Origin: a phage
Reading direction: 5' to 3' (one strand)
NCBI GenBank assembly: GCA_030873995.1
Contig: GCA_030873995.1_4701.1
Length of the DNA stretch: 45,609 bases
Shown here: positions 1 through 45,609 of the stretch, one piece after another
Numbering within the stretch: the first letter of the stretch is position 1
Layout of the letters: each line of letters begins with the position of its first letter
Translations under genes and position numbers: made by a program
The notes under the pieces: model-generated
Databases searched by the model: none
The model's input: only the letters and a program-made list of their open reading frames with translations
What the model was told of the DNA's origin: nothing

Positions 1-270
1 AAAAAATTCAAACTTGCATCTGATAAGTTAGACAACAATATGGTAACTAAGCCTAAGCACTACGAGTTCTTTGATGGCGTAGAGGCAATCACTATCATTG
101 CCCGCAGTATGACCGAGAAGCAATTCGCTGGCTATTGCATGGGTAATGCTTTGAAGTACCGTCTACGTGCAGGTAAGAAATTCAACACTGAAGAAGATCT
201 GAAGAAAGCAGACTACTACAAAGAGTTATTCCAGAAGCATCGTCACGAATGTATTGATGAGGATATTTGA
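1..270 (+). CDS. nucleotide (dNMP) kinase, T7 gp1.7-like, C-terminal part; open to window start and in frame with 45376..45609
   Basis: Block HYEFFDGVEAITIIARSMTEKQFAGYCMGNALKYRLRAGKK matches the T7 gp1.7 C-terminus as recalled; no stop between position 1 and 270 in this frame. Confidence 0.55.
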   Translation, partial: KKFKLASDKLDNNMVTKPKHYEFFDGVEAITIIARSMTEKQFAGYCMGNALKYRLRAGKKFNTEEDLKKADYYKELFQKHRHECIDEDI

Positions 271-271: not shown

Positions 272-460
272 ATGGAAGATAAACTTTATCAAGGCTATTA
301 CGGTATCTTATATAAGATAAGCCAGAATGGTTCTGTATTGGCTTCTTATGATAAAGGTGAAAGATGGCAGGTAAGTGCTTTTGGCTCTAACTTATCACGC
401 TTTAAAGAGGAAATAGCTAAAGGCGCTATGCTGGAGGTGAAGGTAGATGAATATCTTTGA
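272..460 (+). CDS. hypothetical protein (62 aa)
   Basis: ATG at 272 preceded by GAGGA; ORF track 254..460 trimmed to the RBS-supported start. Confidence 0.4.
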   Translation: MEDKLYQGYYGILYKISQNGSVLASYDKGERWQVSAFGSNLSRFKEEIAKGAMLEVKVDEYL

Positions 461-1394
461 GTTCCTAGGTCTTCCAGAAGACCACCGCAATCACCCATTC
501 ATGCTGGTGAAGCATCGCGGTGAAGTTCCTGAGAAGAAATTAACTTTTCCATGTTATGCACAGGTGAAACGAGATGGTATCTTTTCTGCTGTTGTTGTTC
601 GCGCTGATGGTGTCGTTGGCATTTTTGGTCGCACTGGTAAGAAACTGGCAAACACTGAAGGCCTCGAACAAACCTTTGCTACCTTTCCGGTTGGCGTTTA
701 TCTTGGTGAGCTTCAGTCTATGGCCGTTGATATCTACCTTGAGGCGATCTCTGGGGTTGTGAACCCTAACCGCACCGAGCCTCTTGATTTCATAGGTCAG
801 CAGATTAAAGATAACCTGTATATCGACTTCTTCGATATGTTAACTATTAAGGCATTCCACGATGGATTCACTGATGTTTCTTATCTCAAACGTTACGATG
901 CTTTACATCGCCGCATCGGCGCTCATCTTAGCGGGTACAACGCTATCCTTCCTATTACTCCTTGCCATAATGAGCGAGAAGTTGAAGCGTTTGCGCAAGA
1001 GCAGATAGACGCAGGCCGAGAGGGCGCTGTGTTTAAACTGGACTGTGATTATGAAGCAGGCCATAAAGGTTATCGTCAGACTAAAGAAGTCCGTAAGGTA
1101 ACTTATGACCTTACTTGCATTGGCTTTGAAGAAGGTAAAGGCAAGTACAAAGGTAAGGTAGCTAACCTCATTTTCAAATGGAAAGAGGGCAAGACAATCA
1201 AAGCTATGTTAGGTAAAGGGTGGACTCATGCAGATGCAGAACAGATGTTCCACGACATTAAACATGGTGGACGATTGAATGTCATTGGTAAAATCTTTGA
1301 AGTCAAAGGTCTTCAGGATTCAAGCAAGGGCAACATTCGTCTGCCCAAAGCGGGAGAATTAAGACATGACAAAGATGAACCAGATTTCTTTTGA
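447..1394 (+). CDS. ATP-dependent DNA ligase
   Basis: 315 aa; KxDG adenylation motif (VKRDG), EGAVFK and basic KGK-rich C-terminal motifs; RBS GGAGGTGA. Confidence 0.7.
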   Translation: MNIFEFLGLPEDHRNHPFMLVKHRGEVPEKKLTFPCYAQVKRDGIFSAVVVRADGVVGIFGRTGKKLANTEGLEQTFATFPVGVYLGELQSMAVDIYLEAISGVVNPNRTEPLDFIGQQIKDNLYIDFFDMLTIKAFHDGFTDVSYLKRYDALHRRIGAHLSGYNAILPITPCHNEREVEAFAQEQIDAGREGAVFKLDCDYEAGHKGYRQTKEVRKVTYDLTCIGFEEGKGKYKGKVANLIFKWKEGKTIKAMLGKGWTHADAEQMFHDIKHGGRLNVIGKIFEVKGLQDSSKGNIRLPKAGELRHDKDEPDFF

Positions 1395-26999: not shown

Positions 27000-27686
27000 C
27001 CAAAGGTGGTCACAAAGTAACCAAAGTCAAAATTTTGATGTAGGCGTGTGTGAGGTGTCTCGCCCTCGCCCTCGCCGGGTTGTCCCCATAGGGTGGCCTG
27101 AGGGAATCCGTCTTCGACGGGCAGGGCTGATGTACTCCTTGCCTAGTACAAGGGAGGCGGAGTGAACGCCTGGGACGGCCTAGGGAATGGCTTAGTGGTG
27201 GACAAGGTGATTACCTTAGTGAAGCCTCTTAGTGCATTCCTTAGGCCATTCAGGGCGTTTATGAGGTATTGACAGGGTGGATGGGTGTGGGCTATCTGTT
27301 CGTTTCGCTACGCTTCACTCACTGCTCCTCACTTCGTTCGTCGCTGCGGTAGCCTGATGTGTACCTTAGGTTATTACTTGATGGATAGCTTAGGTTAGCC
27401 TTAGTGGATTACCTTAGTTAAAGCCTTAGTGCTTCACTTAGTATCAGCTTAGTAGTGTACCTTAGTCAGACTTAGTGTCTTCTCTTAGTGATTGCATAGC
27501 TAAAGCTATAAGATGCAAATAGGTCGCGGTCGGTAGACCGCTAAAGAAAGAGAATGGTAATAAGATGCAGTAGGAGGAACACCAGAAACCTAGCCAACCT
27601 AAGCTATCCTAGCTCTATATCTATTGCTTTTCCTTAGTCTAACACGTTAGACAACCTATCTTATTCTTAGTGATGGTAACTTAGTG

Positions 27687-29013: not shown

Positions 29014-29014
29014 G

Positions 29015-30482: not shown

Positions 30483-33110
30483 ATGCAAGACCTACACGCT
30501 ATTCAACTTCAACTTGAAGAAGAAATGTTTAACGGAGGTATCCGTCGCTTTGAAGCGGACCAACAACGCCAGATTGCATCCGGTAATGAATCCGACACGG
30601 CATGGAATCGCCGCTTATTGTCTGAGTTAATCGCGCCAATGGCTGAAGGCATTCAGGCATACAAGGAAGAGTATGAAGGTAAAAGAGGCCGTGCACCGCG
30701 TGCATTAGCTTTCATTAACTGCGTAGAAAACGAAGTGGCAGCATATATCACGATGAAAATCGTTATGGATATGCTGAACACGGATGTAACCTTGCAGGCT
30801 ATAGCCATGAATGTAGCTGACCGCATTGAGGACCAAGTACGTTTTAGCAAGCTGGAAGGTCACGCCGCCAAATACTTTGAGAAAGTTAAGAAGTCACTTA
30901 AGGCAAGTAAGACTAAATCATATCGCCATGCGCACAACGTAGCGGTCGTGGCTGAGAAGTCAGTAGCTGACCGTGACGCTGATTTCTCTCGCTGGGAGGC
31001 GTGGCCTAAAGATACCTTGCTACAAATCGGTATGACCTTGCTAGAAATACTGGAAAATAGTGTATTCTTCAATGGTCAGCCTGTCTTTCTTCGCACCTTG
31101 CGCACTAATGGTGGCAAGCATGGCGTTTACTACTTACAGACTAGCGAACACGTGGGTGAATGGATAACTGCATTTAAAGAGCACGTAGCTCAGCTGAGTC
31201 CAGCCTATGCGCCTTGCGTTATTCCTCCTCGTCCGTGGGTTTCTCCGTTTAATGGTGGCTTCCATACCGAGAAAGTGGCGAGTCGTATTCGTCTGGTTAA
31301 AGGAAACCGCGAGCACGTCCGCAAGCTGACCAAAAAGCAAATGCCAGCGGTTTACAAGGCTGTTAACGCTTTGCAGGCGACTAAGTGGCAGGTTAATAAA
31401 GAGGTTTTGCAGGTAGTAGAGGACGTTATCCGTCTCGACCTTGGTTATGGTGTGCCTTCCTTTAAACCGCTCATCGACCGTGAGAACAAGCCAGCTAATC
31501 CAGTGCCGTTAGAGTTCCAGCACCTGCGAGGCCGTGAACTTAAAGAGATGCTAACGCCGGAACAATGGCAAGCCTTCATCAACTGGAAAGGCGAATGTAC
31601 CAAGCTGTATACCGCTGAAACTAAGCGCGGCAGCAAGTCGGCGGCAACCGTTCGTATGGTCGGGCAGGCCCGTAAATACAGCCAGTTTGACGCAATATAC
31701 TTCGTGTATGCACTGGATAGCCGTTCACGCGTTTATGCGCAATCTAGCACGCTCTCGCCGCAATCAAACGACTTAGGCAAGGCATTGCTCCGTTTTACCG
31801 AAGGGCAGCGTCTTGATAGCGCTGAGGCGCTTAAGTGGTTTTTGGTGAACGGGGCGAATAACTGGGGTTGGGATAAGAAAACTTTTGACGTGCGCACCTC
31901 TAACGTGCTGGATGGCGAATTTCAAGACATGTGCCGCGACATTGCAGCCGATCCGCTGACCTTCACTCAATGGGTAAATGCTGATTCCCCTTACGGCTTC
32001 CTTGCATGGTGCTTTGAATATGCGCGTTATCTGGATGCACTGGATGAAGGCACGCAAGACCAATTCATGACGCACCTACCCGTCCATCAAGACGGTAGTT
32101 GCTCTGGTATCCAGCACTATAGCGCGATGTTACGCGATGAAGTAGGTGCGAAAGCAGTAAACCTTAAGCCTTCTGACTTCCCTCAAGATATTTATGGCGC
32201 GGTTGCGCAGGTTGTTATCCAGAAGAATTACGCCTACATGAATGCAGACGATGCAGAGACTTTCACATCTGGAAGCGTCACACTTACAGGTGCAGAACTG
32301 CGTAGCATGGCTAGTGCGTGGGATATGATAGGAATAACTCGCGGATTGACCAAAAAGCCCGTAATGACACTACCTTATGGCAGCACACGTCTAACCTGCC
32401 GTGAATCAGTGATTGATTATATCGTTGATTTGGAAGAAAAAGAGGCCCAACGAGCTATTGCGGAAGGGCGTACCGCCAATCCTGTACACCCTTTTGATAA
32501 TGACCGTAAGGACAGCCTGACACCTAGCGCAGCTTATAACTATATGACAGCTTTAATCTGGCCTTCTATTTCGGAAGTGGTTAAAGCTCCTATAGTGGCA
32601 ATGAAAATGATTCGTCAGCTTGCCCGTTTCGCAGCTAAAAGGAATGAAGGCTTAGAGTATACCTTGCCTACTGGCTTCATCTTGCAACAAAAGATTATGG
32701 CTACTGATATGCTCCGCGTATCCACTTGCCTGATGGGAGAAATCAAGATGAGTCTACAGATTGAAACGGACGTAGTGGATGAAACGGCTATGATGGGCGC
32801 TGCTGCTCCTAACTTTGTGCATGGTCATGATGCCAGTCACCTTATCTTAACAGTCTGCGACCTTGTTGATAAAGGGATTACATCTATCGCAGTCATTCAT
32901 GATTCTTTCGGTACTCACGCAGGCCGTACAGCCGATCTTCGTGATAGCTTAAGGGCAGAAATGGTGAAGATGTATCAAGGCCGTAATGCCCTGCAAAGCC
33001 TGTTAGATGAGCATGAAGAACGCTGGTTAGTAGACACCGGAATCCAAGTGCCAGAGCAAGGAGAGTTTGACCTTAACGAAATCTTAGTATCTGACTATTG
33101 CTTCGCATAA
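30483..33110 (+). CDS. single-subunit DNA-dependent RNA polymerase (T7/SP6 type)
   Basis: 875 aa; [17 protein letters not shown] and HDSFGT catalytic motifs; C-terminus ends CFA. Confidence 0.95.
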
Positions 33111-33118
33111 TATTAATA

Positions 33119-33149
33119 GGCCATTCCTTCGGGAGTGGCCTTTTCTTTT
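33119..33149 (+). terminator. intrinsic terminator after the RNAP gene (early terminator analog)
   Basis: 9-bp stem GGCCATTCC/GGAGTGGCC with UUCG tetraloop, then TTTTCTTTT. Confidence 0.8.
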
Positions 33150-33183
33150 ACCTACTACCGGTAACATTTCATTAACATAAAGT

Positions 33184-33199
33184 GTCTCACATGTGAGAC
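33184..33199 (+). repeat. 16-bp perfect palindrome (copy 2), abuts promoter 33202
   Basis: Read directly. Confidence 0.9.
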
Positions 33200-33201
33200 T
33201 T

Positions 33202-33224
33202 ATTTACCGGACACTATAGGATAG
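33202..33224 (+). promoter_or_regulatory. phage-RNAP promoter (origin-flanking, upstream copy)
   Basis: ATTTACCGGACACTATAGGATAG; C at -11; palindrome 33184..33199 abuts it. Confidence 0.75.
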
Positions 33225-33364
33225 CCGTCGGAGACGGGAAAGAAAGGGAAGATAAAGGATATAAAGGAAGTAATAGGTATTAAAGGTTATATAGGTTATC
33301 TAGGAATACCTATTACCTTCTTCTTTCCTCTTATTACCACTTAGAGGAAGGGCAGATCTAGGTT
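33225..33364 (+). other. candidate primary origin of replication: AT/purine-rich repeat region between twin phage promoters
   Basis: GAAAGAAAGGGAAGATAAAGGATATAAAGGAAG and AGGTTATATAGGTTA repeats with a long imperfect inverted repeat; same arrangement as the T7 primary origin. Confidence 0.45.
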
Positions 33365-33380
33365 GTCTCACATGTGAGAC
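33365..33380 (+). repeat. 16-bp perfect palindrome (copy 3), abuts promoter 33386
   Basis: Read directly. Confidence 0.9.
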
Positions 33381-33385
33381 TTCGT

Positions 33386-33408
33386 ATTTACCGGACAGTA
33401 TAGATAAG
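33386..33408 (+). promoter_or_regulatory. phage-RNAP promoter (origin-flanking, downstream copy)
   Basis: ATTTACCGGACAGTATAGATAAG; G at -5; palindrome 33365..33380 abuts it. Confidence 0.6.
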
Positions 33409-33433
33409 ACTAACTTACTTTGGAGATTTAACC

Positions 33434-33562
33434 ATGCGTAACTTTGAGAAGATGACCCGTAAAGCTAACCGTTTTGACATGGAAGAAGGGCAGAAGAAAG
33501 GCAAGAAGCTGAATAAACCTGTCCGTGACCGTGCATCTAAACGCGCTGCGTGGGAGTTCTAA
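33434..33562 (+). CDS. T7 gp1.1-like small basic protein
   Basis: 42 aa MRNFEKMTRKANR... matches the T7 gp1.1 N-terminus as recalled; same position after RNAP and twin promoters. Confidence 0.6.
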   Translation: MRNFEKMTRKANRFDMEEGQKKGKKLNKPVRDRASKRAAWEF

Positions 33563-33565
33563 GTT

Positions 33566-35554
33566 ATGGCTATTATTCAGAATGTACCGTGTCCTGCTTG
33601 CCAAAAGAACGGACATGATATTACTGGCAATCATTTAATGATCTTTGACGACGGGGCAGGGTACTGTAACCGTGGTCACTTCCATGATAACGGTAAACCT
33701 TATTACCACAAGCCGGAAGGTGGCATCGAGATAACCGAGTTACCTATTACTGGCAATATCAAATATACACCTTCTCAATTCAAAGAAATGGAGAAGGAAG
33801 GGAAGATAAGCGACCCTAAGCTACGCGCCATCGCACTTGGTGGTATGCGTATGAAAGACCGTTGGGAGGTTATGAATGAGCAAGAAAGGGCAGACCAAGA
33901 AGCAGAGTGGAAACTTGATGTTGAATGGTTCCTCACGCTTAAGCGTAAGAACCTTGTATCCCGTCACATTCGAGGTGACATCGCAGCAATGTACGATGTG
34001 CGCGTTGGACACGATGAAGAGGGAAGAGTCAACCGTCACTATTATCCACGATATGAAAAGGGTGTGTTTGTTGGAGCAAAATGCCGGACGTTGCCGAAGG
34101 ATTTTAAGTTCGGACACCTAGGTAAACTCTTTGGTATGCAAGACCTTTTCGGTATGAACACTTTGTCTCACGTGTTAGACAAGGGGAGACGAAAGGATTG
34201 CTTGCTTATTGTAGGCGGTGAACTTGATGCACTAGCAGCGCAGCAGATGCTCCTTGATTCTGCCAAAGGTACTAAGTGGGAAGGTCAGCCATACCATGTA
34301 TGGTCTGTCAATAAAGGTGAGTCTTGCCTTGAAGAGATAGTGCAAAACCGTGAGCACATAGCCCAATTCAAGAAGATTATATGGGGCTTTGATGGCGACG
34401 AGGTGGGGCAGAAGCAGAACCAACAAGCTGCTCGCCTGTTTCCTGGCAAATCCTACATCCTCGAATATCCATCTGGTTGCAAAGATGCTAACAAGGCATT
34501 GATGGCTGGCAAGGCTAAAGAGTTTGTAGATGCATGGTTTAATGCCAAGTCATCTGATGAAGTCTTTGGTAGCCAGATTAAATCTATCGCATCTCAAAGG
34601 GATAAGCTCAAGGCTGCACGTCCAGAGCAAGGACTATCATGGCCTTGGCCTAAGCTGAACAAGGTAACGCTAGGTATTCGTAAGAACCAACTTATCATTG
34701 TAGGCGCAGGCTCTGGTGTAGGTAAGACTGAGTTCCTTCGTGAAGTAGTTAAGCACCTCATTGAAGAACACGGTGAATCTGTAGGCATCATTTCTACAGA
34801 AGACCCGATGGTCAAGGTGTCCCGTGCTTTTATCGGCAAGTGGATTGATAAGCGTATTGAGTTACCGCCAACCAACGACCCGAAAGAAGATGGATACCGT
34901 GAGGTGTTCGACTACACCGAGGAAGAGGCTAACGCCGCCATTGATTATGTAGCTGATACAGGTAAGCTGTTTGTAGCTGACCTAGAGGGTGACTATTCGA
35001 TGGAAAAGGTAGAGCAAACTTGCCTAGAGTTTGAGGCTATGGGCATTTCTAATATCATCATTGATAACTTAACGGGGATTAAATTAGATGAGCGTGCTTT
35101 TGGTGGGAAGGTTGGTGCACTTGATGAATGCGTCAAGCGGATTGGTACTATCAAAGACCGACACCCGGTTACTATATTCCTTGTATCACACCTTACACGT
35201 CCTCCGGCAAACCGTACCCAACACGAAGAAGGTGGCGAGGTTATCCTTTCTGACTTCCGAGGTTCAGGCGCTATCGGATTCTGGGCATCTTACGCCTTGG
35301 GGATTGAGCGTAATACAAGAGCTGAAACGCTTGATGAACGGACTACCACGTACATCTCATGTGTCAAAGACCGCGACCAAGGTATCTACACTGGAACCAA
35401 GGTCATGCTTAAGGGTGACATTCAAACCGGACGTTTAATGGAACCACAAGCCCGTACTAAGTCATTTGATACAGGTGAAGCAAGGCAACAAGAAGTGCCG
35501 GATTTACCGGACACTATAGAAGAGACAACTTTTGACGATGAACAGGAGTTTTAA
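33566..35554 (+). CDS. DNA primase/helicase (gp4-like)
   Basis: 662 aa; N-terminal Cys4 zinc ribbon, Walker A GAGSGVGKT; acidic C-terminus ending DDEQEF. Confidence 0.9.
   Translation: MAIIQNVPCPACQKNGHDITGNHLMIFDDGAGYCNRGHFHDNGKPYYHKPEGGIEITELPITGNIKYTPSQFKEMEKEGKISDPKLRAIALGGMRMKDRWEVMNEQERADQEAEWKLDVEWFLTLKRKNLVSRHIRGDIAAMYDVRVGHDEEGRVNRHYYPRYEKGVFVGAKCRTLPKDFKFGHLGKLFGMQDLFGMNTLSHVLDKGRRKDCLLIVGGELDALAAQQMLLDSAKGTKWEGQPYHVWSVNKGESCLEEIVQNREHIAQFKKIIWGFDGDEVGQKQNQQAARLFPGKSYILEYPSGCKDANKALMAGKAKEFVDAWFNAKSSDEVFGSQIKSIASQRDKLKAARPEQGLSWPWPKLNKVTLGIRKNQLIIVGAGSGVGKTEFLREVVKHLIEEHGESVGIISTEDPMVKVSRAFIGKWIDKRIELPPTNDPKEDGYREVFDYTEEEANAAIDYVADTGKLFVADLEGDYSMEKVEQTCLEFEAMGISNIIIDNLTGIKLDERAFGGKVGALDECVKRIGTIKDRHPVTIFLVSHLTRPPANRTQHEEGGEVILSDFRGSGAIGFWASYALGIERNTRAETLDERTTTYISCVKDRDQGIYTGTKVMLKGDIQTGRLMEPQARTKSFDTGEARQQEVPDLPDTIEETTFDDEQEF
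35502..35524 (+). promoter_or_regulatory. phage-RNAP promoter embedded in the primase/helicase C-terminal coding tail
   Basis: ATTTACCGGACACTATAGAAGAG, encodes DLPDTIEE. Confidence 0.75.
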
Positions 35555-35715
35555 TGGAAATTATTAAACCAGTATTGAATATCGGTATTGAGATCCTATT
35601 CATGCTTGTGATCGCAGATTATGCTGCACGATATGGCTTCAAGAAAGCAGTGAAACTTATCGTTGCATCTGGTTTTATGATGTCAATGTTCTTTATTGTA
35701 ACACGCCTTATCTAG
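35554..35715 (+). CDS. small membrane protein (53 aa)
   Basis: TAATG coupling to the primase/helicase stop; two hydrophobic segments. Confidence 0.45.
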   Translation: MEIIKPVLNIGIEILFMLVIADYAARYGFKKAVKLIVASGFMMSMFFIVTRLI

Positions 35716-35732
35716 TGTATTTATCAGGGCTT

Positions 35733-35748
35733 GTCTCACATGTGAGAC
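35733..35748 (+). repeat. 16-bp perfect palindrome (copy 4), extended stem
   Basis: Read directly. Confidence 0.9.
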
Positions 35749-35787
35749 AGGCTCTTATTAAGTACATTAAATAACTGGAGATTGATT

Positions 35788-36471
35788 ATGTATAAATTAG
35801 TATTGAATGTAGGTGATTATGTTCGTAACATCAATGAAGCCTCACGTCGTTATCGTTGCCGTGGTGTAGTGGCTCGTGTAAGTGAGAACATGTATCATGT
35901 AGAATATGATGATGGTATTAAGGCTTCTTATCACAAGAAAACCGCACATAAATATCTTGAAAAGGTTGTAGAGGTAAACAATCAATGTAAGTGCATACAT
36001 GATGAGGTTTGCGATAAATGTGCTCGCCAGATGCTTAAGAATTTCCTAGCCCCTCTTTATTATGGTGCTGGTCCTCAAACACTAGCAGAGTACATGGCAG
36101 AAAAGAAAACCACACTCAAGAAAGAGCGTCGCAATGTAATCACTGGTAAGACTCAAAGTGGGATGATTAAGCAATGTGGCACTGCATTAGGTGTTACACA
36201 GTTCAATACTCGTGCATTGGGTAAATCCACAGGGCAAGCTATGGTGAAAATTGGTGAAGCTATGATGCACCCAAATGTGCCTGTGCGAATCTTGGATGTT
36301 GACCATGCAATCACAGAGCATGGCACACCACGGCGTGTAGCTAATAATCATTTCGCCGACACTATAGAAGGTATTATTCGTAAGCAAGGGTTGAAGGGTC
36401 TTCACATCTTAAATGGTGAAGAATTACTGTACCTACCTATCGTTACTGAAGAAACATACGTGAATATCTAA
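35788..36471 (+). CDS. hypothetical protein (227 aa)
   Basis: GGAG RBS before ATG 35788; Cys cluster CKCIHDEVCDKC; contains a degenerate promoter-like site. Confidence 0.55.
   Translation: MYKLVLNVGDYVRNINEASRRYRCRGVVARVSENMYHVEYDDGIKASYHKKTAHKYLEKVVEVNNQCKCIHDEVCDKCARQMLKNFLAPLYYGAGPQTLAEYMAEKKTTLKKERRNVITGKTQSGMIKQCGTALGVTQFNTRALGKSTGQAMVKIGEAMMHPNVPVRILDVDHAITEHGTPRRVANNHFADTIEGIIRKQGLKGLHILNGEELLYLPIVTEETYVNI
36350..36372 (+). promoter_or_regulatory. degenerate promoter-like site inside CDS 35788..36471
   Basis: ATTTCGCCGACACTATAGAAGGT; four mismatches at -13 to -10. Confidence 0.25.
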
Positions 36472-36481
36472 GGAGTTAATC

Positions 36482-36700
36482 ATGACTAAGGTATTAATTT
36501 ATATGCGTGGACCTCATAAATGCTATGCAGTTGTAGCACCAAATGGCGTTAAGCCTTATCGTACTTCAAAAAGATTGGCATTAATAGGTGCTAGTAGTAG
36601 TGCAAGTTTCCAAATGGAACTTTTTGGTCATTGGACTGAAAGGCAATTCCGTGAGGATTTTAAAGTCATTGGCAGTTTCATGGTGAAATATGCAGAATAA
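36482..36700 (+). CDS. hypothetical protein (72 aa)
   Basis: AAGGAG RBS. Confidence 0.5.
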   Translation: MTKVLIYMRGPHKCYAVVAPNGVKPYRTSKRLALIGASSSASFQMELFGHWTERQFREDFKVIGSFMVKYAE

Positions 36701-36866
36701 ACATAGTCTTAGAATGTTCGATGGTCATGAAGACCTGCAAGCCAAGATTACTAACCAAGCCTTCCTGTTCGCACAGTTAACTATGGCTGAGGCCAAGAAG
36801 AATAGTCTCACTCGTGAACAGGTTATCAAGGAAAGTGAAGTGAAACGTAAGATTCGCAGTCGATAA
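36690..36866 (+). CDS. small ORF (58 aa)
   Basis: Overlaps the upstream stop; followed by an extended hairpin; below track threshold. Confidence 0.3.
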   Translation: MQNKHSLRMFDGHEDLQAKITNQAFLFAQLTMAEAKKNSLTREQVIKESEVKRKIRSR

Positions 36867-36876
36867 GTCAAGGGTT

Positions 36877-36892
36877 GTCTCACGTGTGAGAC
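36877..36892 (+). repeat. 16-bp near-palindrome GTCTCACGTGTGAGAC (copy 5), extended stem
   Basis: Read directly. Confidence 0.9.
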
Positions 36893-36923
36893 AGCCTTTT
36901 ATCATGTTGATTGGAGGTGCATT

Positions 36924-37031
36924 ATGCCACGTGATTATGATTCTGATTGGGACTACTATGACTCAATGAATCCAAAACCAGAACGTTCAGATGATTACTA
37001 CGAAACAGAGGCAATGTATGAAAACTATTAA
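36924..37031 (+). CDS. small acidic Tyr/Asp-rich peptide (35 aa)
   Basis: GGAGGTG RBS; MPRDYDSDWDYYDS... Confidence 0.35.
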   Translation: MPRDYDSDWDYYDSMNPKPERSDDYYETEAMYENY

Positions 37032-37236
37032 AGTCAGTAAGGTTTGCTCTTGCGGTAAAGGTTATCGCAGTCGTATTGATGGTAAGTGTGGACATTGTAG
37101 GTCTAAGAAAGAGGCTGCTTTGTTTGACAAGTACCACAATGAATTAGCCTATAACTACCCACATCTAACACCTAATTCTTTATTAGGGCTTGGTTATAGG
37201 GCTAAATACTTTGGAGCAATCTATGAAATCAATTGA
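37018..37236 (+). CDS. small zinc-ribbon-like protein (72 aa)
   Basis: CSCG...CGHC motif; AGAGG RBS; overlaps the DNAP start. Confidence 0.45.
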   Translation: MKTIKVSKVCSCGKGYRSRIDGKCGHCRSKKEAALFDKYHNELAYNYPHLTPNSLLGLGYRAKYFGAIYEIN

Positions 37237-39769
37237 TTGGAAGAAGGAGGCAGAAGGTCGTATCCTCGTGATGGATGCGGAAGCTAAAGGACTCCTTGAC
37301 GCTATCCGATATGGACACCGTGAAGATGTGCATATCATTTGCTGCATGGATTTGCTTACTACCGAGGAGTTTCTCTTCTTTGACCCGTATGAGATGCGTG
37401 ACCCTGAAGCAAGAGAACGCCTGAAGGAATGGGAAGGTCATCAAGATGGAACCTTGGTTGACGGTGTTAACTTCCTGAAGCACTGTGAGGCTATTGTGTC
37501 GCAGAACTTCCTAGGGTATGACGGTCTTCTCTTTGAGAAAGCATTCCCTGATATTTGGAAAGGCTTTAACTATACCGAGAAGCGCGGTAAGGGCAGACTC
37601 CGTGCTGACCTGTGTCCGGTGCGAGTCATGGATACGCTGGTGATGAGTCGCCTGTTAAACCCCGATAGACGCCTTCCTCCGCAAGCATATGCCAAAGGTA
37701 TGGGTAACGTCGCCCCTCACTCAATTGAGGCGCACGGCATCCGTATAGGTCGCTATAAACCGGAGAACGAGGACTGGTCTAAACTAACTGACCACATGGT
37801 TCACCGTGTACGTGAGGACGTGGCGATTGGTCGTGACTTGTTCCTCTGGCTCTTTAACGGGGAATGGATGGAGCACAAACGCCGTGGCGTGAATAAACGC
37901 ACGGGCCTAGGCATTGAGACAGCCTTCCACATGGAGTCCATTGTGGCGCTGGAGATGAGCCGTCAGGCCGAGCGCGGGTTCCGTCTGGACATCGACAAGG
38001 CTTTGGCCCGATGCGAAGAATTGGACGCTAAGATTGATGAGACAGTCGCAGCGTTCCGCCCTCACATGCCTATGCGTATCAAGTCTAAACCTTTTAAACC
38101 GGAAGAAAAGAATGAAGTATGCCAACGCGCAAATGAGTATGGAGCTAGCAACAATATACCTACTGTCCTTGACCCCTCACACTTTCTTCATGCCGAGAGA
38201 CGAGGAGATCGCAAGACAGTATGGAGTGTCACTACTAAGTCTGGTGATTGGTCGGCTAGTGTCAAGAAAGACTTTCCTCACCTTAGAGGAAACCGTAATG
38301 ACACGCCAAGTATCAAGTGGATTGGTGCTTACTCGCCTGTTACTTTCGAAGAGATTCCCTTGGGTAACAGGGATACAGTTAAGCAAGTGCTCTATGATTA
38401 TGGATGGAAAGGTGTTGAATTTAACGATACCGAGCAAGCGCATCTCGATGAGTATGGCGTATTACCAAAACCTTGGAGTGGAAAGATAAATGAAAAGTCT
38501 CTTACTTTATGGCAAGAGAGAGCCGCACGTGAAGGTAAAACAGTACCCGATTGGTGCTTGGGTATCGCTGCATGGTACATACTCGTATCCCGTCGTGGTC
38601 AGATACTCAACCGTGGTGACGTTGAAGCCTTCAACGAGAAGGGAACGTGGCCCTCGCAGGCTGGTGTACGAAAGTGTCGCGGCCTTGTACCTGTAGCATT
38701 CAACAAGGAGCTAGGAATCAATGCGCAGCAATACTACGAAAGGTACGGATGCTGGCCTACGTCAGACAAGGATGACGGGGAGTGGCGTGTTCCAGCTGTT
38801 GCTATTAGCATTGGCACTTCTACGTTCCGTATGCGTCATCGTAACGTGGTTAATATTCCTGCCCGTGGCTTGTATCCTTTACGTGATTTATTCATAGCAG
38901 GTAAAGGCAAGCTAATCCTTGGTTGTGACGGTGCAGGTCTTGAACTGCGCGTCCTGTCTCACTTCATGAATGACCCTGAGTACCAAGAGATTGTATTGCA
39001 TGGTGACATCCATACACATAACCAGATGAAGGCTGGTCTTCCTAAGCGTGACATGGCGAAGACGTTTATATACGCTTTCCTCTATGGCTCTGGTATAGCC
39101 AACCTTGCAGCAGTATGTGGTGTTACCGAGGAAGAAATGAAGGAAGTTGTGGCAAGATTCGAGATTGAACTGCCGTCTCTTGCACGTCTTCGTGAGAATG
39201 TTATCGCACAAGGTAACAAGTTTGGCTACCTGCAAGCACCTGATGGGCATTGGGGTCGCATCCGCATGTCTGGTGGTGAACTTAAAGAGCACACGATGCT
39301 TAACGTATTACTCCAGATGACTGGCTCTTTGTGTATGAAATATGCATTAGTCAAGGCATTTGCAGTAATGCGCAAGGAAGGTGTAGCCTTGGATGCTATG
39401 GGAAATCCTTGTGGTGTGGCTAACGTGCATGATGAAATCCAGATGGAAGTTCCTGAAGAGGAGGTCTTGTATCTTAACTACGACCTACCTTTCACCTTAG
39501 ATGGGTTCGAAACAGAGAAGGCTGCCGTGCAAGCAGTGTTCGATGCAGAGGAGAAACGTGTTCATGTGGATTCTGAAGGACGTATGTGGTCTGCTGCAAA
39601 CCTCGTTAGTGTTGATGCTGATGCTGGTGTATTGCATTGCCAGCGCCGTTATCACCGTGCAGGTCATATCATTGCCGACGCCATGACTTGGGCAGGGCAG
39701 TATCTGAAGATGCGTTGCCCGATGGCAGGCGAATATAAGATTGGCGCAAGTTGGAAGGAAACACACTGA
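37223..39769 (+). CDS. DNA polymerase (family A, gp5-like) with 3'-5' exonuclease domain
   Basis: Exo motif VMDAEAKGL; pol motifs DGAGLELR, RDMAKTFIYAFLYGSG, VHDEIQ; start placed at RBS-supported ATG 37223. Confidence 0.9.
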   Translation: MKSIDWKKEAEGRILVMDAEAKGLLDAIRYGHREDVHIICCMDLLTTEEFLFFDPYEMRDPEARERLKEWEGHQDGTLVDGVNFLKHCEAIVSQNFLGYDGLLFEKAFPDIWKGFNYTEKRGKGRLRADLCPVRVMDTLVMSRLLNPDRRLPPQAYAKGMGNVAPHSIEAHGIRIGRYKPENEDWSKLTDHMVHRVREDVAIGRDLFLWLFNGEWMEHKRRGVNKRTGLGIETAFHMESIVALEMSRQAERGFRLDIDKALARCEELDAKIDETVAAFRPHMPMRIKSKPFKPEEKNEVCQRANEYGASNNIPTVLDPSHFLHAERRGDRKTVWSVTTKSGDWSASVKKDFPHLRGNRNDTPSIKWIGAYSPVTFEEIPLGNRDTVKQVLYDYGWKGVEFNDTEQAHLDEYGVLPKPWSGKINEKSLTLWQERAAREGKTVPDWCLGIAAWYILVSRRGQILNRGDVEAFNEKGTWPSQAGVRKCRGLVPVAFNKELGINAQQYYERYGCWPTSDKDDGEWRVPAVAISIGTSTFRMRHRNVVNIPARGLYPLRDLFIAGKGKLILGCDGAGLELRVLSHFMNDPEYQEIVLHGDIHTHNQMKAGLPKRDMAKTFIYAFLYGSGIANLAAVCGVTEEEMKEVVARFEIELPSLARLRENVIAQGNKFGYLQAPDGHWGRIRMSGGELKEHTMLNVLLQMTGSLCMKYALVKAFAVMRKEGVALDAMGNPCGVANVHDEIQMEVPEEEVLYLNYDLPFTLDGFETEKAAVQAVFDAEEKRVHVDSEGRMWSAANLVSVDADAGVLHCQRRYHRAGHIIADAMTWAGQYLKMRCPMAGEYKIGASWKETH

Positions 39770-39885
39770 TGGATAGGCTTGACATTGTTTACCTATTCTT
39801 CACTTTCTTTCTTACACTCCTTATGCTTGCTTGTTATGGGAGTATGAGACTAGATATACCTGATGAAGAAGAGGGTTACGACTAA
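39769..39885 (+). CDS. tiny membrane peptide (38 aa), paralog 1
   Basis: ATG overlaps the DNAP stop (TGATG); hydrophobic core then acidic DIPDEEEGYD tail. Confidence 0.4.
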   Translation: MDRLDIVYLFFTFFLTLLMLACYGSMRLDIPDEEEGYD

Positions 39886-39983
39886 TGCAAACTGCTTTTA
39901 TTATTCTTGGTATCATATTATTTATGGTAGTATTCTGGGCTTTCTCTGGCATTGACCCAGATTGTGATGGTAACTACGACTGA
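39885..39983 (+). CDS. tiny membrane peptide (32 aa), paralog 2
   Basis: TAATG coupling; hydrophobic core then GIDPDCDGNYD tail similar to 39769..39885. Confidence 0.4.
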   Translation: MQTAFIILGIILFMVVFWAFSGIDPDCDGNYD

Positions 39984-40021
39984 GTTATACTCAAGGTCAC
40001 TTACGAGTGGCCTTTATGAAT
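39984..40021 (+). promoter_or_regulatory. RNase III-type processing site candidate
   Basis: GTTATACTCAAGG - hairpin GGTCACT-TACG-AGTGGCC - CCTTTATGAAT. Confidence 0.45.
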
Positions 40022-40051
40022 AACTTACTCCCACACATTTTGTCTAACATG

Positions 40052-40074
40052 ATTTACTGGACACTATAGAAGGA
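40052..40074 (+). promoter_or_regulatory. phage-RNAP promoter
   Basis: ATTTACTGGACACTATAGAAGGA exact consensus; +1 G at 40069. Confidence 0.85.
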
Positions 40075-40138
40075 AAGCCTAGGTAATCTAGGTTTATAAG
40101 GTAGTATGGGTAATTAAGTAAATATAGGAGATATAAAT

Positions 40139-40516
40139 ATGTCAATGGTAACTACTCTGGTATTCGTAGCTCAATACTTTCGTGGTTTGGCTAACAAGTT
40201 CAAAGCTAAGGCTATCAAAGCTATTGAGTCTCGCATTGAAGCAGTACATGCAGAGCAGTTTGAAGTTGAAGAACATCGTAGTTCTCAAATGATTGACTGC
40301 CACAATCGCTACTATGCATCTCGTGATGACCTTAATGCACGCCAAGTCAAAGAGGTTGAAGAGATGCTGGCACGTCACCAGCAAGAGCGAGACAGCCTGA
40401 AAGCTGAATTTGAAGAGAACAAGGCATCCATCGCCCTTGTACATCAAGCCGCATCTGACAGCCTGAAGAAAGAGATTGTTATGCTGGAAATTGAGTTAGA
40501 CAACCTGACCAAATAA
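40139..40516 (+). CDS. hypothetical coiled-coil protein (125 aa)
   Basis: Own promoter at 40052 and AT-rich leader with GGAG RBS. Confidence 0.55.
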   Translation: MSMVTTLVFVAQYFRGLANKFKAKAIKAIESRIEAVHAEQFEVEEHRSSQMIDCHNRYYASRDDLNARQVKEVEEMLARHQQERDSLKAEFEENKASIALVHQAASDSLKKEIVMLEIELDNLTK

Positions 40517-40537
40517 TTACTGGACACTATAGAACAA
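40515..40537 (+). promoter_or_regulatory. phage-RNAP promoter
   Basis: AATTACTGGACACTATAGAACAA; +1 G at 40532. Confidence 0.8.
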
Positions 40538-40593
40538 TAGGTCGACTTAGTTCGGCCTATGATTGTGTAGTGTAACAATAGGAGACTAAATAA

Positions 40594-41400
40594 ATGGCAC
40601 GTGGTGATTTTGATTTTGGTGCTCAGGTTACTAAAGCTGAAGGTAAGGTTTTTAAGAACCCTGAAGTTGGTGATCATGAAGCAGTAATCTCTGGCATCAT
40701 TCATGTGGGTTCCTTCCAAGATATCTTTAAGAAAGGTAATACCACTGAAGTTAAGAAGCCAGCAAACTTTGTTCTTGTTAAGATTGTACTGATGGGTGAC
40801 GATGACAAGAACGAAGATGATTCTCGCATGGAACAATGGATGGCTGTTCCTCTGAAGTCTGGTGATAAGGCAACACTGACTAAGTTCCTGAATGCAGTTG
40901 ACCCCAAAGAATTGCTTGGTGGCTTCGATGATTTTATCGGGGAATGCCTGACTGCAACTATGGTTGGCTCTGGTGACAAGAATGACGATGGTTCATTCAA
41001 GTATGTTAACTGGAAAGGATTCGGTGGTATGCCTGACAAGCTTAAGAAACTTGTCATTGCTCAGGTTGAAGAAGAGGGTCTGTCTATGACAGGTCACATC
41101 ACCTTCGACAAGCTGACCAAAGAAATCCTTGATGACATTCCTGCTAACTTGGTACGCCAATACTTCCTTAATGAAACACCTCGTGGTAAGAACCTGTCTG
41201 TTGCTGGTTCTCACGTAGAAGCAATCATTAAAGCTGCTCGTGAAGAAGACCCAGAGTGGAAGAAGGCTAAGAAGAAAGACGAGGAAGATGCTACCCCAGC
41301 TAATCGTAAATCTCTGGATACTGGTGAGTCTGTTCCGCAGGAAGTACCTGAAGCAGAAGATACTCCTGCACCGGAGATGGATGAGGACGCGGAATACTAA
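40594..41400 (+). CDS. hypothetical protein with acidic C-terminal tail (possible ssDNA-binding protein)
   Basis: 268 aa; own promoter 40515; AGGAG RBS; C-terminus EMDEDAEY resembles gp2.5-type acidic tails. Confidence 0.55.
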   Translation: MARGDFDFGAQVTKAEGKVFKNPEVGDHEAVISGIIHVGSFQDIFKKGNTTEVKKPANFVLVKIVLMGDDDKNEDDSRMEQWMAVPLKSGDKATLTKFLNAVDPKELLGGFDDFIGECLTATMVGSGDKNDDGSFKYVNWKGFGGMPDKLKKLVIAQVEEEGLSMTGHITFDKLTKEILDDIPANLVRQYFLNETPRGKNLSVAGSHVEAIIKAAREEDPEWKKAKKKDEEDATPANRKSLDTGESVPQEVPEAEDTPAPEMDEDAEY

Positions 41401-41409
41401 GGAGGGAGA

Positions 41410-41628
41410 ATGAAAGTACAAATCGTAACCCTGCACTGCAAGAAGGGTATCACAACGCTTGGAGGTGGCACTTTCCACTCTTTCTCCGAAGGGGAGATTT
41501 ATGCTGACCTGCACTACATCTGGCGCGACGGACAGCACGTGGTGAACTACAGCGACCCAGCTACGGGGAAACGCCACGGCGTATCGCTTCCGGCGCATGA
41601 CATTGCTCAGGTGAACACAGTTTTATAA
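41410..41628 (+). CDS. hypothetical protein (72 aa)
   Basis: AAGGAGGGAG RBS. Confidence 0.55.
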   Translation: MKVQIVTLHCKKGITTLGGGTFHSFSEGEIYADLHYIWRDGQHVVNYSDPATGKRHGVSLPAHDIAQVNTVL

Positions 41629-41629
41629 A

Positions 41630-41645
41630 GTCTCACGTGTGAGAC
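41630..41645 (+). repeat. 16-bp near-palindrome GTCTCACGTGTGAGAC (copy 6), 15 bp upstream of promoter 41661
   Basis: Read directly. Confidence 0.9.
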
Positions 41646-41660
41646 AAATTGGTGTCCGGT

Positions 41661-41683
41661 ATTTACTGGACACTATAGAAGAG
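41661..41683 (+). promoter_or_regulatory. phage-RNAP promoter
   Basis: ATTTACTGGACACTATAGAAGAG exact consensus; palindrome 41630..41645 upstream. Confidence 0.85.
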
Positions 41684-41733
41684 AAGAATTTTAATCGGCG
41701 ATAATGCCATAACCAACAAAAGGAGAATTTAAT

Positions 41734-42105
41734 ATGTTCAAGATTGAAACTATCGTAAACCGTGTTGTTAAAGGTGCTGCTCTGGTATCCGTTGAGTCTT
41801 TCATTATCGTCGATGAAGCTGATCAACTGGTAGCTGGTACTAAGGCTTACGATACCCGTGAAGAAGCTCAGGCTAAGATTGACAGCATGGGTAACTTCGC
41901 TGCTGGTCTGGAGTTCGCTCGTGCTTGCTTCCCTGAGCAGGCTGACAAAGCTCAGATTGGTAAGGCTAATATCGTAGCTGAATATCTGGATTGGGTTGCT
42001 GCTGGTAAACCAGTGAAAGAAGTTAAGGCTGCTGAAGAAGCTGAAGCTCCAGCAGAAGAAGTAGCTGCACCGGAAACTCCGGTAAGCGAAGAGGAAGAAT
42101 TTTGA
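41734..42105 (+). CDS. hypothetical protein with acidic C-terminal tail ending EEEEF
   Basis: 123 aa; own promoter 41661; AAAGGAG RBS. Confidence 0.6.
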   Translation: MFKIETIVNRVVKGAALVSVESFIIVDEADQLVAGTKAYDTREEAQAKIDSMGNFAAGLEFARACFPEQADKAQIGKANIVAEYLDWVAAGKPVKEVKAAEEAEAPAEEVAAPETPVSEEEEF

Positions 42106-42169
42106 TAATAGCAGGTGTTGCCTCTGTTAGTCCTGGTTGACTATCACGCTCATCTCATCTAATGCCCTG

Positions 42170-42196
42170 TCTGCCTTAGTGTAGGCAGGGTCTTTT
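42170..42196 (+). terminator. hairpin plus T-run, terminator candidate
   Basis: 7-bp stem with 6-nt loop followed by TCTTTTG. Confidence 0.35.
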
Positions 42197-42222
42197 GCGT
42201 AATAGTTATTGGAGAATGAATT

Positions 42223-42513
42223 ATGCCGACTATTGAAGAACGTTTCCTGATTCACGTGAGCTTCTCATCCATACATCTTGGTTATCTTATCACTATTCTC
42301 TTAGGTGAAGAGATTTATCTGCATAACCACTTAATACCAGAGTATGTATGTCACCGAGATAAGATACACCCTACTAATTGGGCGAAAGAGTGGCTGCGTG
42401 AACATGTGCTGAAGGAGTGGCCTACATGCGACCAAACTTCGACTTCGGAGCTACAGTATCGGAAGACAATAACCTGTTGCTGTGGCCGACTGAAGGTAAT
42501 CGAATCGCTTTAA
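42223..42513 (+). CDS. hypothetical protein (96 aa), 3' end overlaps the exonuclease start
   Basis: GGAGAA RBS; preceded by a hairpin terminator candidate. Confidence 0.4.
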   Translation: MPTIEERFLIHVSFSSIHLGYLITILLGEEIYLHNHLIPEYVCHRDKIHPTNWAKEWLREHVLKEWPTCDQTSTSELQYRKTITCCCGRLKVIESL

Positions 42514-43451
42514 TAGATGCTGATATGTTACCCTATATTGTAGGATATACTATCAGTGACATGACTTATGTACGAGCCACAACTCGTGTTAAGTCAGGAC
42601 AAGTCCCATCAATCAAGGATACACCTGAATGTAAGCAAGCATGTGACCGTGTGAACTCCTTGCTTAACTCTTGGGTGTATGCAGCAGAGTGCGATGCAGC
42701 TAAGTTATTCATGACGAAATCAGAAGCTAACTTCCGTGTTCGCCTAGCATTCACCAAGCCTTACAAGGGTCAACGTAAGACCGAGAAGCCTCCATTCTTC
42801 TATGAATTGCGAGAGCATCTCTTAGAGGTTCATGGTGCAATCTTGGCTGATGGTGAGGAAGCAGATGACCTAATGAGCATCGCACAATGGGACAGCCATC
42901 GCCGCTTCCAGCAAGATACAGGTAACGAGTTCCCTATCGGTAGTCCAGAGCATAAAGCATTCTCTGATACTTGCATCGTTTCCTTAGATAAGGATTTGAT
43001 GATTGTTCCCGGTTGGCATCTACAGCCGGGAGGTGAGAAGAAATGGGTAGAGCCTATGGGTTGGCTTGAGCTACGCCGCAAGGCTAATGGTCAAGTGAAA
43101 GACCTTAAAGGTGCTGGCCTCATGTTCCACTATGCACAGATGATTATTGGTGATGACATAGATAATTATGCTGGCATACCGGGACGTGGTGCTAAATATG
43201 CCTATGCTCTTCTCAAAGACTGTAAGACAGAGAAAGAATTGTACATGGCAGTGCTTGGTGCATACAAGGCTAAGTTCGGTCATGGACAAGTTAAGATTAA
43301 GAATTACCGAGGTGGTTATCGTATCGGCAAAGCCTTTGACCTGATGCTTGAATGTGGTCGCCTAGCTCACATGGCAAGATTCAAAGGGGACATATGGCGG
43401 GCCGATAAGAACCCAATCTTGTGGGGAGATGACGATGGATGGATGCATTGA
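42426..43451 (+). CDS. 5'-3' exonuclease (gp6-like, FEN family)
   Basis: Motifs RIALIDADML, GEEADDLMSIA, SLDKDLMIVPG, GDDIDNYAGIPG; GAAGGAG RBS before ATG 42426. Confidence 0.8.
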   Translation: MRPNFDFGATVSEDNNLLLWPTEGNRIALIDADMLPYIVGYTISDMTYVRATTRVKSGQVPSIKDTPECKQACDRVNSLLNSWVYAAECDAAKLFMTKSEANFRVRLAFTKPYKGQRKTEKPPFFYELREHLLEVHGAILADGEEADDLMSIAQWDSHRRFQQDTGNEFPIGSPEHKAFSDTCIVSLDKDLMIVPGWHLQPGGEKKWVEPMGWLELRRKANGQVKDLKGAGLMFHYAQMIIGDDIDNYAGIPGRGAKYAYALLKDCKTEKELYMAVLGAYKAKFGHGQVKIKNYRGGYRIGKAFDLMLECGRLAHMARFKGDIWRADKNPILWGDDDGWMH

Positions 43452-43872
43452 CCATGGGTGTAAAGGTTATGGCATGGGCTACGCTACTGCCTTCTATAAA
43501 GGTAGATGTGGTAAGAAGAAATATACCACTAAGCACAGGCTAGTTTACTGTAAGCACCATAACATTCACCCTGAAGATTTGCCTAAAGATATTGTTATTA
43601 GGCACAAATGTGATAATGCACGTTGTATCAATCCTTTACATTTAGAGTCTGGTACACATCAAGATAACATGAAGGACATGGCTGTCCGTGGCAGAGCCTA
43701 CAAAGGAGGGATGCCAGGAGAAAAGAATGGCAGATGTGTGCTTTCTGATTTACAAGTAGCAGAATTACGCGCCTTACGTGCTAAAGGGTTTACTTGTAAA
43801 GCTCTAGCTGAACGGTATGGCATAGGTACTACTCAAGTATCTAGACTAGCAAGAGGAGAACAACGTGCGTAA
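43435..43872 (+). CDS. HNH endonuclease with C-terminal helix-turn-helix
   Basis: HKCDNARCINPLHLESGTHQDN motif; GGGGAG RBS before ATG 43435. Confidence 0.7.
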   Translation: MDGCIDHGCKGYGMGYATAFYKGRCGKKKYTTKHRLVYCKHHNIHPEDLPKDIVIRHKCDNARCINPLHLESGTHQDNMKDMAVRGRAYKGGMPGEKNGRCVLSDLQVAELRALRAKGFTCKALAERYGIGTTQVSRLARGEQRA

Positions 43873-44275
43873 GATGAAGCAATCTGAACTTGGTGAAGTT
43901 CGTGATATACTGTGTGAAAGACAAGGTTGGCGTTGCCCTATTTGTGGAGGTCATTTAAAACTTATCTCTAAAGCAAATAGGGTCGTTGACCATTCACACG
44001 ATAATGTAGGTGCAGTCCGTGGTGTATTATGCCGTGGGTGCAATGGAGGTATCGGCAAGATAGAAGCGTATGCACAGTCGTATTGTAAGGCTGGCAATAA
44101 TACGCTTGAGGTTATCAAAGTTCTACGTAATCTTGCGGACTACTTAGAACTCCATCGCACACCGCAGACAGAGTGGATTTATTACAAACATCAAACGGAG
44201 GCAGAGAAACGAGAGGCTAAGAATCGTAAGGCTCGCCTTGCTTATGCAAGAAAGAAGGAGGCTAAGAGTGGCTAA
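43865..44275 (+). CDS. recombination endonuclease VII-like (Holliday junction resolvase)
   Basis: CPICGG...VVDHSHDN...RGVLCRGCNGG signature. Confidence 0.75.
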   Translation: MRKMKQSELGEVRDILCERQGWRCPICGGHLKLISKANRVVDHSHDNVGAVRGVLCRGCNGGIGKIEAYAQSYCKAGNNTLEVIKVLRNLADYLELHRTPQTEWIYYKHQTEAEKREAKNRKARLAYARKKEAKSG

Positions 44276-45275
44276 ACTTCGTAGCCTTTATAAAGACTCC
44301 GAGGTGCTTGATGCAATCGAGCAAGCTACCGACGAGAAAGGTAATGTTAACTATAATGAGATGGCGAAGATCCTATCTAGCCACCCTGTGGGTAAGAAGA
44401 TCACCCGTCAACTTGCTCGGTATTGGCATGGTCAATTTAAGAAGACCAAGAAGAATGGCGATTACTACCAGACTCTTCTGCAAGAGGATAAGCGTATCAA
44501 AGAAGAGCGTAAGCTCAGGACTCCTGACCGCTACGAGGATTTGGCTATTGTACCATTGCCTGACTCGCCTCATCGAAGTGTACTGGTAATCCCTGATACT
44601 CATGCACCTTATGAGCACCCAGATACCCTAGAGTTCCTTGCAGCCGTGGCGGCACGTTACCGTCCAGACACAGTGGTACACCTAGGAGATGAGGCAGACA
44701 AACATGCCCTGTCATTCCACGATTCGGACCCAAATCTGGATAGTGCTGGCATGGAGCTAGAGAAGGCTCGTGTCTTCATGCACAAGTTGCACAAGATGTT
44801 CCCTGTGATGCGCCTGTGTCATTCTAATCACGGCTCTATGCACTTCCGTAAGGCAAGCGCCAAGGGTATTCCAGTGCAATATCTTCGCACCTACCGTGAA
44901 GTCTTTTTCCCAAATGGAGGTGGCGACCAGTGGGATTGGCAGCATACACATGTTCTTGAGTTGCCGAATGGTGAACAAGTGGCATTCAAGCATCAACCTG
45001 CTGGCTCTGTCCTAGCAGATGCAGCGCATGAGCGTATGAACCTTGTGTGTGGTCACTTGCACGGTAAGATGTCTGTGGAGTACGCACGTAATACACATGA
45101 ACAGTATTGGGCTGTGCAAGGTGGCTGCTTAATTGATGAGTCATCCCGTGCATTTGCCTATGGGCGTGAGTCTAAATACAAGCCAGCATTAGGTTGTGTG
45201 GTTATTCTGGAGGGTGTACCTCATATTGTCCCGATGCAAACCAATAGCGACAACCGTTGGATTGGCAAGATTTAG
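44268..45275 (+). CDS. calcineurin-like metallophosphoesterase with about 100-aa N-terminal extension
   Basis: Motifs IPDTH, GDEAD, SNHG, GHLHG; AAGGAGG RBS 7 nt before GTG 44268. Confidence 0.65.
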   Translation: MAKLRSLYKDSEVLDAIEQATDEKGNVNYNEMAKILSSHPVGKKITRQLARYWHGQFKKTKKNGDYYQTLLQEDKRIKEERKLRTPDRYEDLAIVPLPDSPHRSVLVIPDTHAPYEHPDTLEFLAAVAARYRPDTVVHLGDEADKHALSFHDSDPNLDSAGMELEKARVFMHKLHKMFPVMRLCHSNHGSMHFRKASAKGIPVQYLRTYREVFFPNGGGDQWDWQHTHVLELPNGEQVAFKHQPAGSVLADAAHERMNLVCGHLHGKMSVEYARNTHEQYWAVQGGCLIDESSRAFAYGRESKYKPALGCVVILEGVPHIVPMQTNSDNRWIGKI

Positions 45276-45292
45276 TTGACACTATAGAACAA
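45270..45292 (+). promoter_or_regulatory. phage-RNAP promoter, SP6-like variant
   Basis: ATTTAGTTGACACTATAGAACAA; differs from the local consensus at -12 and -10. Confidence 0.6.
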
Positions 45293-45375
45293 AGGGCTAG
45301 GTAAGACTTTATCGGCTGGCGTATCCAAATGATATTGCACTAGCCCTTGATTGTATAGTGAATGGAGGATTCAAT

Positions 45376-45609
45376 ATGTCACACTATGAATGTAAGAAGT
45401 GTCATAAGCGTTATGATTACTGTACTTGTGGTCAAGAGAAAACATCTTTTAAAGTTGGAGACAAGGTATTTCGTAATGAAAAAGATTCGATTCCTTGGAA
45501 TCAATACTGCAAAGAAGCTGGTATTGACCCTGATAGCCCTGTAACCATAGATGATATTGATGGCATTAACTTGTGCTTTCGTGAGGTGAGGGGTACAGGT
45601 TGGGATTCC
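45376..45609 (+). CDS. nucleotide kinase gp1.7-like, N-terminal Cys-rich part; runs off the window end in frame with 1..270
   Basis: GGAGG RBS; Cys-rich N-terminus (CKKCH...CTCG); no stop before the window end; promoter 45270 upstream. Confidence 0.5.
   Translation, partial: MSHYECKKCHKRYDYCTCGQEKTSFKVGDKVFRNEKDSIPWNQYCKEAGIDPDSPVTIDDIDGINLCFREVRGTGWDS

Follow-up and report, generated by a model that had tools for sequence, protein, structure and literature searches.

Evidence that a K1-5-like coliphage assembly is a rotated genome opened within its nucleotide kinase gene

Phages of the T7/SP6 supergroup package their DNA from concatemers at fixed sites. The record of coliphage K1-5 is linear and carries an exact 234-bp direct terminal repeat, at which the record starts, and its gene 23, at approximately 18 kb, encodes a 167-amino-acid (aa) protein annotated as a “nucleotide kinase” (YP_654124.1). 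In the relative UAB_Phi78, whose ends have been analyzed with Bal31, the direct terminal repeats measure 179 bp (PMC4837284). In T7 (NC_001604), gp1.7 (NP_041967.1, 196 aa) is reported to convert dTMP and dGMP to the diphosphates independently of divalent cations (PMC7693777, PMC11897194). The enzyme is described as unlike other nucleotide kinases (PMC7693777, PMC11897194, PMC12846349), and known kinase motifs are reported to be absent from it (PMC7693777). Furthermore, T7 gp1.7 activates filamentation and NADase activity of EfAvs5 (PMC11897194). Lactococcal SaV, a DUF3310 protein, is toxic and plays a part in the sensitivity of phages to AbiV (PMC8306868), and DUF3310 proteins also include cytotoxic, growth-inhibiting proteins of mycobacteriophages.

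The DNA analyzed here, a phage contig of 45,609 nucleotides that is referred to throughout as the window, is densely coding, with all genes on the plus strand. With high confidence, it represents one complete, rotated genome unit of a K1-5-like coliphage (Vectrevirus, Autographiviridae) that was cut inside the nucleotide kinase gene. In essence, the interrupted gene is gene 23 of K1-5; wrap-around genes are routine in rotated phage assemblies, and the finding as such is already known. Many rotated Vectrevirus records of the same genome type with arbitrary starts (e.g., OZ035xxx) are present in the database. In the OZ035xxx records, the kinase gene lies at approximately 26 to 27 kb and, as judged by match coordinates, in the interior of the record, whereas the cut in the window falls within the gene, which is arranged as follows:

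45376..45609, plus strand: 5' portion of the kinase gene, covering codons 1 to 78, identical to residues 1 to 78 of K1-5 YP_654124.1
1..270, plus strand: 3' portion of the kinase gene, covering codons 79 to 167 and the TGA stop at 268-270; K1-5 base 18095 aligns to base 1
1..6, plus strand: run of six A's (A6) exactly at the cut, the count of which preserves the frame
43..222, plus strand: region encoding DUF3310, residues 93 to 152 (Pfam PF11753, E 2.5e-25, 88.7 bits)

The 234 nt from the ATG at 45376-45378 to the last base of the window, 45609, form exactly 78 codons, and the frame resumes at position 1 as a new codon and remains open for 89 codons up to the TGA at 268-270. An earlier note on this DNA, made from the letters without database searches, had described an open reading frame (ORF) from 45376 that is open to the window end and continues in the same frame from position 1 to that stop, which the present reading bears out. 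Its joined frame also stands, but its length of 168 aa for the joined product had counted the stop; the ORF obtained by joining the ends encodes 167 aa. The remaining two frames across the joint contain many stops. Frame continuity alone is nevertheless weak evidence of adjacency, because 22.6% of start positions in the window are followed by 89 stop-free codons, compared with 0.3% in a shuffled sequence. The case for contiguous ends, as built from sequence comparison, rests on homology, beyond frame continuity.

Given that frequency of open stretches, the window might be a linear fragment whose ends lie apart in the real molecule and whose two partial genes are aligned in frame by chance, but homology leaves this reading a vanishingly small probability. 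The joined product corresponds to one K1-5 protein, that of gene 23, which is likewise 167 aa long and is identical at 166 of 167 residues, the single substitution being T94 in the window and I94 in K1-5. In a blastn comparison of complete K1-5 with the window, K1-5 16638-18094 aligned to 44153-45609 and K1-5 18095-18368 aligned to 1-274; the adjacent K1-5 bases 18094 and 18095 are therefore window bases 45609 and 1, with zero bases gained or lost at the joint. A 600-nt joint query, consisting of the last 300 and the first 300 bases, was matched as a single piece in 87 records of the phage collection that was searched (K1-5 at 99.1%). In addition, three independent metagenomic contigs, all uncultured sequences, contain the joint in one piece. 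One is an SRA contig (L004), reached via a cluster representative of the joined protein (P0001); it reads through the joint and encodes this representative, which is 98% identical to the joined product. The other two are IMG/VR contigs (L006 and L007) that carry the exact joint-spanning 36-mer in their interior. Protein searches also returned many full-length homologues, of 167 to 181 aa, covering both gene halves, and each K1-5 segment is already present in the window exactly once. No overlap between the two window ends was found. The contiguity of the ends proposed in the earlier note thus finds support in a base-exact alignment as well as in phage, SRA, and IMG/VR sequences that cross the joint.

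The homopolymer at the cut agrees with this reading, since A6 is found in the window, in K1-5, and in the SRA contig, so that no base was gained or lost at the joint. In phage AAPEc6 (L008, 491-530), the run at this spot has five A's and the record splits the kinase gene into two annotated ORFs (87 and 92 aa), probably owing to an error in sequencing the homopolymer or to a (frameshift) mutation. A6 was also considered as a programmed frameshift site and was rejected: C followed by six A's makes a poor slippery heptamer, and the ORF is uninterrupted in most relatives.

Colinearity with K1-5 extends to the whole genome. K1-5 1-18094 aligns to window 27060-45609 and K1-5 18095-44385 aligns to window 1-27294, and 17 colinear blastn blocks with 79 to 98% identity cover K1-5 1-44385. 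The best relatives in the phage collection are all Vectrevirus records, and the single-subunit RNA polymerase, an 875-aa ORF at 30483..33110, is 94% identical to the K1-5 RNA polymerase region. A tRNA search of the window returned none. Both termini of the K1-5 record fall on one short interval:

27060..27294, no strand assigned: direct terminal repeat in single copy; K1-5 base 1 aligns to 27060 and K1-5 base 44385 aligns to 27294

In the window, this repeat is preceded by the right-end unique sequence of K1-5 and followed by the left-end unique sequence, and the repeat and both flanks are conserved at approximately 95% between the two phages. No second copy of the terminal repeat and no other long direct repeat was found in the window. 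The single flanked copy reads as a concatemer junction or, equivalently, as a circularized assembly in which the repeat copies collapsed, and the missing second copy is as expected after collapse. Because the repeat occurs once with both unique flanks, the virion ends are predicted to lie near 27060 (left) and 27294 (right); the exact physical termini are placed at approximately these positions by prediction, and the window's own ends are arbitrary. The view of the earlier note that a whole circularized or concatemer-derived genome had been opened inside a gene is in keeping with the K1-5 colinearity, the presence of every segment once, and the single repeat copy.

Short CTTAGT(G) repeats cluster at 27191-27804, inside and just to the right of the terminal repeat; this interval holds 16 of the 30 copies of CTTAGT in the genome and, for CTTAGTG, 11 of 14. 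The terminal repeats of T7 adjoin arrays of short repeats, which this cluster resembles.

A window that closes perfectly without terminal duplication would also be produced by a genome that is truly circular, or that is circularly permuted by headful packaging, with no fixed ends and any opening point equivalent. This possibility is very improbable. The K1-5 record is linear with its exact 234-bp repeat, and the window retains that repeat and its flanks at approximately 95%; the related UAB_Phi78 has the 179-bp direct terminal repeats, with Bal31-examined ends, noted above (PMC4837284); and the genes present, among them one for a single-subunit RNA polymerase with promoters of its own, are those of the T7/SP6 supergroup. 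Because phages of this group carry linear virion DNA with fixed direct terminal repeats, the circle most likely reflects assembly or replication rather than the packaged genome. The packaged DNA is most likely linear and approximately 45.84 kb long, counting the second repeat copy. Such packaged DNA would carry a terminal repeat of approximately 234 bp and, upon replication, would form head-to-tail concatemers. An assembler would collapse the two repeat copies so that the sequence closes into a circle, and software would then open this circle at an arbitrary base, here between kinase codons 78 and 79. A concatemer-spanning read or manual rotation may also account for the circle.

Once the ends are joined, the kinase gene is intact, with a phage polymerase promoter and a strong ribosome-binding site. 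Its signals and neighbors are as follows:

45270..45292, plus strand: SP6/K1-5-type phage RNA polymerase promoter ATTTAGTTGACACTATAGAACAA, an exact match to TTGACACTATAGAA
45364..45369, plus strand: Shine-Dalgarno sequence GGAGGA, 6 nt 5' of the ATG, read from the sequence
44238..45275, plus strand: metallo-phosphoesterase gene, the upstream neighbor (PF00149; phrog_221, E 2.3e-105)
272..460, plus strand: 62-aa ORF, start-coupled to the kinase stop (phrog_15259, E 2.8e-20)
447..1394, plus strand: ATP-dependent DNA ligase gene, downstream (PF01068, PF14743; phrog_114, E 9.2e-73)

The promoter, approximately 90 nt 5' of the kinase ATG, overlaps the stop codon of the gene before it, and both K1-5 and the SRA contig retain this promoter. 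Core promoter sites of the GACACTATAGAA type occur 10 times on the plus strand of the window, compared with an expectation of 0.55. The promoter, ribosome-binding site, and upstream neighbor of K1-5 gene 23 are alike, and the gene region is 98 to 99% identical at the nucleotide level. In contrast, the 62-aa ORF between the kinase and ligase genes is an addition relative to K1-5, with an alignment gap at 274-447, and is also absent from phage LL11; the SRA contig has a 57-aa ORF in the same position. An internal start at ATG 40, which would give a stand-alone DUF3310 protein, was rejected, as it is not preceded by a Shine-Dalgarno sequence.

The DNA metabolism module is ordered exonuclease, HNH, endonuclease VII, phosphoesterase, kinase, 62-aa ORF, and ligase. 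The kinase gene and T7 gene 1.7 are both located in the class II DNA metabolism region near the ligase gene, but the kinase gene precedes the ligase gene in the window and follows it in T7. The HNH endonuclease ORF (147 aa, 43429-43872, plus strand; PF13392/phrog_59), between the exonuclease and endonuclease VII genes, has no counterpart at that site in K1-5 or LL11 and is therefore probably a mobile homing endonuclease.

In the 167-aa product, a Cys-rich N-terminal module, which is variable, precedes a DUF3310 domain, which is conserved, at the C terminus. The 5' part of the gene (45376..45609) encodes a CxxC...CxC cysteine cluster and a small alpha/beta module, which are kept in the full-length homologues of 167 to 181 aa. 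The Cys-rich N terminus noticed earlier was confirmed, with C6, C9, C16, and C18 in the first 18 residues, followed by C45 and C67, and the cluster is predicted to bind zinc. In an AlphaFold model (pLDDT 81), the N-terminal module is small and of the alpha/beta type, and the C-terminal domain consists of three helices. The DUF3310 match spans profile positions 1 to 59 of 60, above the gathering score of 24 bits that serves as the Pfam cutoff, and the joined protein matches PHROG 1689, “nucleotide kinase,” with an E value of 3.9e-44. The resemblance of the C terminus to T7 gp1.7, which the earlier note had suggested, was recovered by alignment of the joined product, with 66% identity over the C-terminal 73 aa (T7 residues 122 to 194; E 3e-31), and is confined to the C-terminal domain. 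Residues 1 to 92 gave no alignment with residues 1 to 121 of T7 gp1.7, whose N-terminal region is likewise Cys rich; Cys richness is all that the two regions have in common. Among 24 homologues, T7 being one of them, every invariant residue falls within the C-terminal domain: H98, Y99, E106, R113, K130-Y-R-L-R-A-G136, K138, D144, K147, Y151, and C162. The KYRLRAGKK motif is invariant across the same 24 homologues.

By analogy with T7 gp1.7, the joined protein probably phosphorylates dTMP and dGMP to the diphosphates. This activity is proposed because the shared domain is 66% identical and the gene lies among DNA metabolism genes, and it is put no higher than probable because sharing is limited to the C-terminal domain and other DUF3310 proteins have been described only as toxic or defense associated. 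The dTDP and dGDP formed by such a kinase would feed phage DNA synthesis, using degraded host DNA. An unlikely but tangible alternative is that the wrap-around protein is something other than a nucleotide kinase, that DUF3310 serves another role (host shutoff, or a toxic early protein similar to SaV), and that the label has been overpropagated. Likeness to T7 gp1.7 is limited to the C-terminal 73 aa, and no canonical P-loop or Pfam kinase family was found in the joined protein. A search of the PDB by fold returned no kinase fold and nothing informative, and a search by sequence gave chance-level SH3 matches only (E ≥ 0.2). In addition, the domain is shared with SaV, linked to AbiV sensitivity, and with the cytotoxic mycobacteriophage proteins, and fold neighbors of the model in BFVD include SaV-like proteins and DUF3310 proteins as well as phage nucleotide kinases. 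However, canonical kinase motifs are lacking from both the window protein and T7 gp1.7, the latter according to PMC7693777, and T7 gp1.7 is the biochemically characterized protein to which the shared domain is 66% identical. The family-invariant charged residues (H98, E106, R113, K130, R132, R134, K138, D144, and K147) and a position amid DNA metabolism genes next to the ligase gene, a neighborhood like that of T7 gene 1.7, also argue for the kinase assignment.

The kinase gene is itself a mosaic, with an N-terminal module that differs among relatives. The C-terminal 76 residues of LL11 gp29 (156 aa) are 100% identical to those of the window kinase, whereas its N-terminal module is different and lacks the CxxC...CxC knuckle, and nucleotide similarity starts at window position 20. 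With LL11, NTNC80A, CrRp3, and others, similarity starts at window 20-40 (window 45376-45609 plus 1-60 versus LL11, L005, 1692-2162), and this interval is the boundary at which the N-terminal module, which is exchangeable, gives way to the conserved DUF3310 domain. Across the family, some N-terminal modules have the zinc knuckle and others lack it, and the “KVGDxVxR..W..C” module varies in number from one to three (P0078, P0081). If the sample held mixed phages, the boundary at 20-40 would have been a natural branch point of the assembly graph, which might explain the opening site. It has also been considered that the gene is a two-part mosaic with a recombination boundary at approximately 20 to 40 nt, in which freely exchanged N-terminal modules are attached to an invariant DUF3310 catalytic domain and their swapping represents an arms-race change that alters or masks recognition by host sensors, rather than tuning of the kinase. 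Such adaptation is conceivable because DUF3310 proteins have twice been tied to abortive infection (EfAvs5 and AbiV), but the proposal is a doubtful one, with little probability attached to it.

Relationships also change along the genome. The structural module (1-20000) is closest to LL11, at 96.4% overall, with a range of 96 to 99.8% and the maximum of 99.8% over the internal virion protein genes (10300-17100). The early/replication module (20001-45000) is closest to K1-5-like Vectrevirus records, at approximately 94 to 95%. No record in the phage collection closely matched the whole window. Judged by these comparisons, the window genome is a mosaic Vectrevirus.

Two tailspike genes, at 22356-24314 and 24399-26582 (plus strand), each encode a C-terminal Peptidase_S74 chaperone domain. 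The second has a pectate-lyase-like domain in place of the K1-5 endosialidase, which implies a capsule or O-antigen specificity other than K1, and is common to only two phage records, vB-Eco-KMB14 and LF31P3 (approximately 98.7%). A pair of 67-nt direct repeats, at 12991-13057 and 35707-35773, is 78% identical and shares the palindrome GTCTCACATGTGAGAC. Both copies are intergenic, one after the gene for the 980-aa internal virion protein and one after the primase/helicase region; a role as terminators or as hairpins for RNA processing is possible.

No new biology emerges from the gene or from the architecture of the genome, and the finding is useful mainly for record keeping. The window is best handled as a complete Vectrevirus genome, with coordinates rotated to start at the terminal repeat (approximately 27060) and with the kinase gene annotated as a single 167-aa ORF instead of two fragments.
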